In this document: piece by piece, positions 4,382-47,142 of the stretch
Numbering within the stretch: position 1 is the first letter of the stretch
Layout of the letters: every line of letters begins with the position of its first letter
Notes under the pieces: model-generated
Told to the model about the DNA's origin: nothing
The model's input: the letters and a program-made list of their open reading frames with translations, nothing else
Database searches by the model: none
Translations under genes and position numbers: made by a program
Assembly: GCF_003334405.1 (NCBI RefSeq)
Contig: NZ_QOWM01000003.1
Reading direction: 5' to 3' (one strand)
Length of the DNA stretch: 64,000 nt
From: Escherichia coli
GTDB taxonomy: Bacteria > Pseudomonadota > Gammaproteobacteria > Enterobacterales > Enterobacteriaceae

Positions 4382-5440
4382 TTACCCTTTGCGATGGCCG
4401 TAGACGCGCGGACGCGTGTAGTAATCGATCAGAGGAACCGTGATGTTCGCCAGCAGGACGGCAAAAGCCACGCCGTCAGGATAGCCGCCGAAACTGCGGA
4501 TCAACCAGACTAATAAGCCCGCAAGCGCGCCGAAAATAAGACGACCACGATTGGTCGTAGAAGCGGTAACCGGGTCAGTCAAAATAAAGAATGCGCCGAG
4601 CATGGTCGCTCCAGACAGCAGATGAATTTGCGGTGCTGCCAGTGTTTCTGGTGAGAACAACCAGCCCAACATTGCGCATAACGCCAGCGTTACTAAGAAG
4701 CTGAGGGGAATATGCCAGCGAATCGCTTTCTGCCATAGCAACCATACGCCGCCAGCCAGCCAGGCGAGATTTACCCATTGCCAACCAGCGCCCGCCAGAA
4801 TACCGCTGTAGATCGGATATTGCATAATCTGTTCAACCGAATGACCGGCACGGACAGAGGTTTTAAATGTATCCAGCGGTGTCGCCTGACTAATGCCATC
4901 AATACCTAAGCGTAGTGTGTTCATATCACCACCACTGGCGGTATGACCGCTAAAAATAACCTGGATGGCGTCGATAAAACCAGGGATGTTGACCGCAATT
5001 TCATGTGGCGGTAACCAGCTGGTCATCTGCACGGGGAAGGAGATCAGTAAGACCACATAACCAATCATTGCCGGATTAAACGGGTTTTGTCCCAGACCGC
5101 CATACAACTGTTTAGCGATGATCACCGCAAACACCGTACCCAGCACGACCATCCACCATGGCGCGAGGGGGGGAATACTTACCGCCAGCAATAAGCCTGT
5201 CAGCAATGCTGAGTTATCTTTCAACGTTGCGGCTACCGACTGCTTGCGTAGTTTGAGTACGAGAGCTTCGGCTAACAGAGCACTAACCGATGCCAACAGG
5301 ATCTGAACGAGAGTACCCCAACCAAAAAACCACAGTTGCGCTGCGATTCCTGGCACGGCTGCGAGCAACACCAACAGCATAATGCGCGATGTCTGGCGCT
5401 GGTTATGGGTATAAGGGGAGCTAGCTATTCTGAATACCAT
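4382..5440 (-). CDS. rsxD: Ion-translocating oxidoreductase complex subunit D
   Basis: 352-aa membrane ORF recognised as RsxD; directly abuts rsxC. Confidence 0.95.
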
Positions 5441-45921: not shown

Positions 45922-47142
45922 GTGGTTGCTGAAAACCAGCCTGGGCACATTGATCAAATAAAGCAGACCAACGCGGGCGCGGTTTATCGCCTGATTGATC
46001 AGCTTGGTCCAGTCTCGCGTATCGATCTTTCCCGTCTGGCGCAACTGGCTCCTGCCAGTATCACTAAAATTGTCCGTGAGATGCTCGAAGCACACCTGGT
46101 GCAAGAGCTGGAAATCAAAGAAGCGGGGAACCGTGGCCGTCCGGCGGTGGGGCTGGTGGTTGAAACTGAAGCCTGGCACTATCTTTCTCTGCGCATTAGT
46201 CGCGGGGAGATTTTCCTTGCTCTGCGCGATCTGAGCAGCAAACTGGTGGTGGAAGAGTCGCAGGAACTGGCGTTAAAAGATGACTTGCCATTGCTGGATC
46301 GTATTATTTCCCATATCGATCAGTTTTTTATCCGCCACCAGAAAAAACTTGAGCGTCTAACTTCGATTGCCATAACCTTGCCGGGAATTATTGATACGGA
46401 AAATGGTATTGTACATCGCATGCCGTTCTACGAGGATGTAAAAGAGATGCCGCTCGGCGAGGCGCTGGAGCAGCATACCGGCGTTCCGGTTTATATTCAG
46501 CATGATATCAGCGCATGGACGATGGCAGAGGCCTTGTTTGGTGCCTCACGCGGGGCGCGCGATGTGATTCAGGTGGTTATCGATCACAACGTGGGGGCGG
46601 GCGTCATTACCGATGGTCATCTGCTACACGCAGGCAGCAGTAGTCTCGTGGAAATAGGCCACACACAGGTCGACCCGTATGGGAAACGCTGTTATTGCGG
46701 GAATCACGGCTGCCTCGAAACCATCGCCAGCGTGGACAGTATTCTTGAGCTGGCACAGCTGCGTCTTAATCAATCCATGAGCTCGATGTTACATGGACAA
46801 CCGTTAACCGTGGACTCATTGTGTCAGGCGGCATTGCGCGGCGATCTACTGGCAAAAGACATCATTACCGGGGTGGGCGCGCATGTCGGGCGCATTCTTG
46901 CCATCATGGTGAATTTATTTAACCCACAAAAAATACTGATTGGCTCACCGTTAAGTAAAGCGGCAGATATCCTCTTCCCGGTCATCTCAGACAGCATCCG
47001 TCAGCAGGCCCTTCCTGCGTATAGTCAGCACATCAGCGTTGAGAGTACTCAGTTTTCTAACCAGGGCACGATGGCAGGCGCTGCACTGGTAAAAGACGCG
47101 ATGTATAACGGTTCTTTGTTGATTCGTCTGTTGCAGGGTTAA
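45922..47142 (+). CDS. mlc: ROK-family global regulator Mlc (DgsA)
   Basis: 406-aa ORF with GTG start (gtggttgctgaaaacc); MVAENQPGHIDQIKQTNAGAVYRLIDQLGPVSRIDLSRLAQLAP... recognised as Mlc; C-terminal ROK Zn motif (C-x-C-G-x2-G-C). Confidence 0.95.
   Translation: MVAENQPGHIDQIKQTNAGAVYRLIDQLGPVSRIDLSRLAQLAPASITKIVREMLEAHLVQELEIKEAGNRGRPAVGLVVETEAWHYLSLRISRGEIFLALRDLSSKLVVEESQELALKDDLPLLDRIISHIDQFFIRHQKKLERLTSIAITLPGIIDTENGIVHRMPFYEDVKEMPLGEALEQHTGVPVYIQHDISAWTMAEALFGASRGARDVIQVVIDHNVGAGVITDGHLLHAGSSSLVEIGHTQVDPYGKRCYCGNHGCLETIASVDSILELAQLRLNQSMSSMLHGQPLTVDSLCQAALRGDLLAKDIITGVGAHVGRILAIMVNLFNPQKILIGSPLSKAADILFPVISDSIRQQALPAYSQHISVESTQFSNQGTMAGAALVKDAMYNGSLLIRLLQG

Follow-up and report, generated by a model that had tools for sequence, protein, structure and literature searches.

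GTG start codons of mlc, hdhA and ynfC in a 64,000-nucleotide stretch of the Escherichia coli genome

The stretch of DNA considered here (the window) comprises 64,000 nucleotides of Escherichia coli (NCBI RefSeq assembly GCF_003334405.1, contig NZ_QOWM01000003.1) and carries three genes, mlc, hdhA and ynfC, for which an earlier reading of the letters, hereafter the original prediction, proposed GTG start codons. The window is the reverse complement of approximately 1,650,486-1,714,485 of E. coli K-12 MG1655 (NC_000913.3), and a window position, prefixed w below, is converted to an MG1655 coordinate by subtracting it from 1714486, which is valid from about w5,500 to w62,900 at roughly one single-nucleotide polymorphism (SNP) per few kb. 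The gene mlc (dgsA; b1594; MG1655 1667344-1668564, minus strand) lies at w45922-47142 on the plus strand and encodes 406 amino acids (aa); hdhA (b1619; 1697273-1698040, minus strand) lies at w16446-17213 (plus) and encodes 255 aa; and ynfC (b1585, NP_416102.2; 1656747-1657457, minus strand) lies at w57029-57739 (plus) and encodes a 236-aa prolipoprotein. The GTG triplets at w45922-45924, w16446-16448 and w57029-57031 are the RefSeq coding sequence (CDS) starts of the three genes and coincide with the CDS starts of NC_000913.3. The proposal of GTG is thereby borne out, and so are the Shine-Dalgarno (SD) sequences on which it leaned, namely AGGGAG 6 nt before the GTG of mlc, AGGAGGT 4 nt before that of hdhA and GGTGA 5 nt before that of ynfC. 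These starts are already known, being identical to the curated K-12 annotation, and nothing about them is new. We put the probability at about 93% that mlc, hdhA and ynfC are conventional genes with a GUG start codon and an SD sequence 4–6 nt upstream; the GUG would be read as methionine by the initiator fMet-tRNA, with the upstream SD sequence placing the ribosome. The starts of mlc and hdhA are settled by published experiments, and that of ynfC is strongly supported by a transcript map and a comparison of 77 species.

GTG starts are no more frequent here than elsewhere in E. coli. The 59 annotated CDSs of the window begin with ATG in 53 cases and with GTG in 6, the remaining three being ynfM (w44787), rsxE (w3754) and dtpA (w1813), all on the minus strand and absent from the list in the original prediction. 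This share of about 10% matches or falls slightly short of what is usual in E. coli (roughly 9–14%) and is not beyond chance; in an N-terminomics data set, 688 database starts were confirmed, and 60 of them (9%) use near-cognate codons (GTG/TTG). The only regulator among the six GTG-start genes is mlc; ynfL, malI, uidR and rstA start on ATG.

For mlc, the GTG is forced, no other start being available ahead of the essential N-terminal domain. The frame is closed upstream by TAG at w45877-45879, no ATG, GTG or TTG occurs from there to w45922, and the first downstream in-frame ATG is codon 54, within the N-terminal part of the protein. That stop also precedes the transcription start at w45885 (plus strand; SMRT-Cappable-seq Supplementary Data 2, b1594 transcription start site (TSS) 1668601 reverse), from which a 37-nt 5′ untranslated region (UTR) leads to the GTG. 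The SD sequence (w45910-45915, plus strand) has a strength of −8.5 kcal/mol, computed, as for all SD sequences below, as the duplex energy with the 16S 3′ tail. N-terminal proteomics and initiation profiling, which the original prediction had proposed as a check, are already published for mlc and hdhA and agree with GTG. In the TRAINSPOTTER N-terminomics study (Nucleic Acids Research (NAR) 2026), the database start of mlc is the GTG at NC_000913:1668562-1668564, with peptide MVAENQPGHIDQIKQTNAGAVYR (MVAENQ...), and the table adds backing from Ribo-RET (BL21) and INRI-seq; Table S2 of INRI-seq gives a start peak of 15–24 in five of five replicates. Among 10,643 E. coli genomes, and likewise in almost every genus of Enterobacteriaceae, mlc and cra are reported to use GTG near-exclusively (PMC11445065). 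The product aligns over residues 1-406 with positions 1-405 of 405 of the NCBIfam Mlc equivalog NF049930 (ROK-family sugar repressor) at 740 bits (cut-off 530). Both the GTG and the GGGAG before it are invariant across six genera, with loci of Salmonella, Kosakonia, Kluyvera, Atlantibacter and Klebsiella aerogenes compared.

Two elements upstream of mlc concern its regulation. The sequence TGTGCTGTTAATCACA (w45817-45832, plus strand) is nearly invariant in the six genera, and we take it to fit the CRP half-site pattern TGTGA-N6-TCACA. Between the transcription start and the SD sequence lies an imperfect palindrome, TTATTTCGGAGCGCGAAAATA (w45887-45908), which is presumably like the Mlc/NagC operator type and would fit autorepression; an inverted-repeat search of w45800-45930 returned no pair at seed 6 and did not call this palindrome.

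The GTG of hdhA is equally forced, because no other in-frame start precedes the essential N-terminal domain: TGA at w16425 closes the frame, and GTG w16446 is the only candidate before the TGAGAGIG dinucleotide-binding (Rossmann) motif. Alternative in-frame starts, which the original prediction wished to see checked in mlc and hdhA, thus exist in neither gene. The SD sequence of hdhA (w16435-16441, plus strand), a motif also named in PMC9841429, reaches −11.5 kcal/mol. An out-of-frame ATG (w16444-16446, plus strand) overlaps the start in ATGTG (w16444-16448), the G of GTG being the last base of the ATG, and hdhA therefore belongs to the class of overlapping AUGUG/GUGUG sites (NAR 2022, PMC9841429), in which it is listed in the atGTG table (Table 2) and was the first candidate tested. 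A luciferase reporter in that study showed initiation from the GUG and none from the overlapping AUG, with a GUG inside AUGUG as efficient as a stand-alone GUG start codon, and the abundance given for hdhA is 447 ppm. Some members of the class are ambiguous (tamA is predicted so in PMC9841429), whereas hdhA uses its GUG unambiguously, owing to the mere 2 nt that separate the AUG from the SD sequence. The unused ATG would give MCLILTT, seven codons. TRAINSPOTTER places the hdhA peptide MFNSDNLR at 1698038-1698040 (GTG) with Ribo-RET and INRI-seq support, and the INRI-seq start peak is 134–164. The product, a bile-acid enzyme, matches NCBIfam NF004773 (7-alpha-hydroxysteroid dehydrogenase) at 541 bits (cut-off 367), residues 1-255 on profile positions 1-255 of 255, and 255-aa homologues with aligned N-termini are widespread. 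Across five loci the start position is GTG or ATG; E. albertii retains GTG and the whole ATGTG, and ATG is found in Halomonas, in Paracoccus and in a metagenomic homologue of 74% identity.

In Shigella sonnei, codon 13 of hdhA is TGA in place of TGC, a nonsense mutation (locus L094, 190-310), and the gene has been deposited as a 241-aa ‘7-alpha-hydroxysteroid dehydrogenase’ with ATC as its first codon (cluster P0244, 293 members). Probably this is a pseudogene on which a start call has been forced.

For ynfC there are three in-frame start candidates, ATG w56993 (248 aa), GTG w57020 (239 aa) and GTG w57029 (236 aa), and the open reading frame (ORF) list does place the gene on the first of them, as the original prediction had remarked. 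The transcription start has been mapped to w57003 (±1, plus strand; SMRT-Cappable-seq b1585 TSS 1657483 reverse, ynfC-only operon), which gives a 26-nt 5′ UTR; that data set uses coordinates of genome version 3, as confirmed by the mlc comparison. GUG w57029 would be the first start within this transcript to be backed by an SD sequence, the SD-like GGTGA (w57019-57023, plus strand), which overlaps the in-frame GTG w57020. The duplex energies are −7.2 kcal/mol for w57029, −1.3 for w57020 and −0.4 for w56993, and the GG..A of the SD sequence is conserved across genera. Initiation at w57029 would yield a lipoprotein signal peptide of textbook form, 16 residues long (MKYKLLPCLLAIFLTG/C), with the canonical arrangement MKYK-LLPCLLAIF-LTG/C (lipidation being predicted from the sequence). 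The lipobox L-T-G-C lies at w57068-57079 (plus strand), and its Cys, residue 17 of the 236-aa form and 29 of the long forms, is invariant in the YnfC alignment. The NCBIfam YnfC profile (NF002798 / PF06788; 236 positions) scores 419 bits (cut-off 263), and its alignment with the long ORF covers residues 13-248; like the profiles of the two other genes, it thus begins at residue 1 of the GTG-initiated protein. PGAP places the start on the GTG in strain E2865, and 236-aa forms bear NCBI names; 248-aa calls are common in automated ENA and Logan sets (cluster P0001, 4941 member sequences).

The start is also conserved in its position. Species-representative genomes scanned with a YnfC alignment gave 80 loci, and the 77 with the anchor motif, each from an Enterobacteriaceae species, were counted. 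Sixteen codons ahead of the lipobox Cys, every one of these 77 species has a start codon (GTG in 63, TTG in 12 and ATG in 2).

The ATG chosen by ORF finders (w56993-56995) sits inside a −10-like block, TGCTACTATGAT (w56986-56997, plus strand). This block, TGTATTTGCTA(A/C)TATGATTGAGAAT, is the most conserved stretch of the ynfC-ynfD spacer (75 distinct sequences), is without triplet (codon) periodicity and is present in 73 of the 77 species at 30–36 nt from the ynfC start. Its core, TGnTAnTAT / TATGAT, lies 6–9 nt upstream of the mapped transcription start, as expected of a −10 element. From the transcription start and the conservation we infer that the block is the ynfC −10 element, and the peptide-like ‘MIENxL’ conservation in 248-aa calls is in reality conservation of DNA. 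A minor-sigma-factor genomic-SELEX paper places a constitutive-promoter peak in the ynfC-ynfD spacer; the peak is of RpoS type and hints at ynfC expression in stationary phase.

Several points weigh against conventional GUG starts, most of them concerning ynfC. INRI-seq records 0 at the annotated ynfC GTG in five of five replicates, the Ribo-RET value of Meydan is likewise 0, and ynfC is missing from TRAINSPOTTER Table S1, where it would fall between b1584 and b1591. Peaks are missing for many genes in the INRI-seq and Ribo-RET tables, so that a zero is weak evidence of non-use, and the zero peaks of ynfC are consistent with a weak ribosome-binding site. The INRI-seq template began at GAGAAT, without the upstream ynfC ATG, and this assay therefore cannot exclude the ATG. 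The ynfC transcription start comes from a single data set and its conditions, and a further upstream promoter, active under other conditions, is possible. A strict sigma-70 two-hexamer consensus scan of w56850-57100 called no promoter. For mlc, the regulatory value ascribed to the GTG is argued by analogy with lacI.

RNA folding of the 5′ regions of mlc, hdhA and ynfC gave nothing beyond shuffled controls (z = −0.96, +0.63 and +0.55), and the idea that a UCAUC-GGUGA pairing sequesters the ynfC SD sequence was dropped, because the folding was no better than in those controls. The main text and three supplements of PMC4909307 (Nakahigashi 2016, TetRP) hold no entry for ynfC, mlc, hdhA, dgsA or the b-numbers, and the 2016 Cappable-seq supplements (PMC4782308), the completeness of which is unchecked, list no TSS at 165746x-165751x.

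What the GTG codons do for expression appears to differ between the genes. The original prediction held that a weak start keeps regulator levels low, which fits only mlc, the sole regulator, for which it has been published as a correlation; it does not fit hdhA, with its near-consensus SD sequence and abundant product. The closest known system for mlc is the set of lacI-type carbohydrate repressors with GTG starts (lacI, cra, rhaR and mlc), in which mlc is named as near-exclusively GTG (PMC11445065). There, a GTG-to-ATG swap in lacI alters the repressor level and gut fitness (Nature Microbiology 2024); the functional swap was made on lacI only, and the role in mlc is by inference. The mlc GUG would plausibly join autorepression in keeping a global repressor scarce. 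For hdhA the near-consensus SD sequence would offset the GUG, and the gene is well expressed; hdhA is a GTG gene, yet not weakly initiated. The ribosome-binding site of ynfC, which pairs a GUG with a modest SD sequence, would be weak.

The strongest alternative is that the GTG codons of hdhA and ynfC serve no adaptive throttling and are historical accidents, with expression set by the SD sequence and the promoter; we give this a little less than an even chance. The codons would then have been kept since any first-base change other than G-to-A or G-to-T destroys the start. In favour of accident, the hdhA GTG occurs only in Escherichia (E. coli and E. albertii), with ATG at that position in distant homologues, and hdhA has a near-consensus SD sequence, high INRI-seq peaks, an abundant product and full efficiency of its GUG within AUGUG. 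Regulators in the window show no excess of GTG starts either: one is found among about 5 regulators and five among the other genes, of which there are about 54. Against accident, the non-ATG start of ynfC has been retained in 75 of 77 species while the adjacent signal-peptide codons diverged heavily, and among sugar regulators the lacI swap carries a measured fitness cost (PMC11445065). The same is suggested by complete E. coli genomes, 5,422 of 5,426 of which are matched by a 1.5-kb query from the mlc region (genes ynfL and mlc), many at 100%. The wild-type 81-mer around the start is found exactly in 4,340 of these genomes for mlc and in 5,129 for hdhA, and the otherwise identical 81-mer with ATG in 0 of 5422 for mlc and in none for hdhA (0 of about 5200–5400 for each of mlc, hdhA and ynfC), an exact match that covers the K-12-identical context alone and leaves genomes with extra SNPs unresolved.

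It is also conceivable, albeit unlikely, that ynfC translation is purposely kept very low or conditional through an unrecognised regulatory element. This reading draws on the non-ATG start in nearly all species, the modest SD sequence, the lack of detected initiation in vitro and in vivo, and a conserved block of about 45 nt shared with the divergent gene ynfD. The latter block (w56968-57012, GTGTAAA...TGTATTTGCTAATATGATTGAGAAT.ATCT) covers the −10 region of ynfC together with roughly 10 nt at the beginning of its transcript and is common to most Enterobacteriaceae genera. Its conservation exceeds the needs of a −10 element, and a regulator site is possible on that ground. A Fur-box-like reading (~11 of 19 matches by eye) was set aside. 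On the minus strand, ynfD itself has a longer ORF of 115 aa from ATG w56963; RefSeq gives 101 aa from the second ATG of ATGATG, at w56921, and this curated start is backed by INRI-seq peaks of 264–353 and a Ribo-RET value of 42.

Two other in-frame starts are rival candidates to the annotated one in ynfC. Very improbable, in our view, is GTG w57020, three codons upstream. It is within the transcript and in frame, and it is GTG in Escherichia, many Citrobacter and Salmonella arizonae; the one faint in-frame ynfC signal of INRI-seq, in a single replicate, is at a CTG at −12. It has, however, no SD sequence before it and lies only 17 nt from the 5′ end, and most sequences from Enterobacter, Leclercia and Silvania do not have a start codon at this position. 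The GTG makes better sense as a piece of the GGTGA that serves w57029. In addition, INRI-seq shows a weak in-vitro signal in three replicates at an out-of-frame GTG (w57078-57080, plus strand; +49 in ynfC) that overlaps the lipobox Cys codon, with no in-vivo Ribo-RET signal.

We regard it as extremely improbable that translation begins at ATG w56993, in which case the precursor would have 248 aa and its signal peptide 28 residues. This ATG opens the longest ynfC ORF and is used by thousands of automated calls, the 248-aa form is annotated in Enterobacter and Lelliottia, and 33 of the 77 species have an in-frame ATG 12 codons upstream of the start. However, the ynfC mRNA begins at about w57003, 10 nt downstream of this ATG, which is therefore promoter DNA and not a codon. 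The ATG also has no SD sequence, and the family profile begins only at residue 13 of the 248-aa form. No upstream in-frame ATG whatsoever is present in 37 of the 77 species, and an in-frame stop falls within the 12 codons upstream of the start in 25, in two of them immediately before it. The conserved block reaches upstream of the ATG and occupies all three frames relative to the gene (classes of 49, 15 and 9 species). An acidic 16-residue n-region is, moreover, atypical of a lipoprotein signal peptide and counts against the 248-aa YnfC. Use of the upstream ATG, named in the original prediction as the outcome that would overturn its GTG call, is thus already largely refuted by the mapped transcription start and the 77-species comparison. 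The warning that these starts are the most prone to mis-calling really applies only to ynfC; for mlc (405–406 aa) and hdhA (255 aa), callers agree across genera.

That the ATGs adjoining the GTGs of hdhA and mlc compete as starts and open regulatory mini-ORFs is scarcely credible: both do lie just downstream of the SD sequences (hdhA w16444, 7-codon ORF; mlc w45917, 14-codon ORF) and AUGUG sites can be ambiguous in some genes (PMC9841429), but the hdhA reporters showed no AUG initiation and no competition (PMC9841429), the mlc ATG is only 1 nt after the SD sequence, and neither has a peak among the INRI-seq alternative sites shown. The mlc ORF (w45917-45961, plus strand) begins out of frame, 5 nt before the GTG, and conservation of its ATG is lacking in five other genera (GAG in Salmonella, CAG in Kosakonia and TTA in Kluyvera); this ORF is probably meaningless.

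With the GUG at w57029 as its start, ynfC resembles other lipoprotein genes for which the longest ORF is over-extended, here by 12 residues; the RefSeq correction (NP_416102.2) restored the MKYK-hydrophobic-LTGC arrangement. It differs from that class in that the spurious ATG is itself conserved, inside a −10-like promoter element, and this conservation is misleading as support because of where the ATG sits. Longest-ORF and Prodigal-style callers append the 12 spurious residues to YnfC in thousands of deposited proteomes, and the question is resolved by the mapped transcription start together with a frame-aware comparison across genera. Beyond such annotation hygiene the importance is small, given that the curated K-12 record is already right for all three genes; the GTG of mlc is a further case of the published non-ATG pattern in sugar regulators.

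The window departs from MG1655 at both ends. At w1-5500 there is a 96-nt length difference from K-12, which displaces rsxE and dtpA by +96, and at w62900-64000 the sequence diverges near the Qin prophage / IS2 boundary.

Published initiation data also touch two other genes of the window. For uidR (w17434-17448, plus strand), N-terminomics peptides begin at codon 2 (MDNMQTEAQPTR, ATG w17437) and at codon 5 (MQTEAQPTR, ATG w17446), with Ribo-RET (BL21) support. The annotated ATG at w17434 has no peptide, and INRI-seq is 0 there in three of five replicates, so the uidR start may be mis-set by 1–4 codons or may be heterogeneous. In pntB, the N-terminomics table assigns an internal peptide to AAG codon 149 (w38570-38572, plus strand; MG1655 1675914-1675916) without Ribo-seq support; this could be an unusual start within the gene, on a non-cognate codon, or else an artefact.

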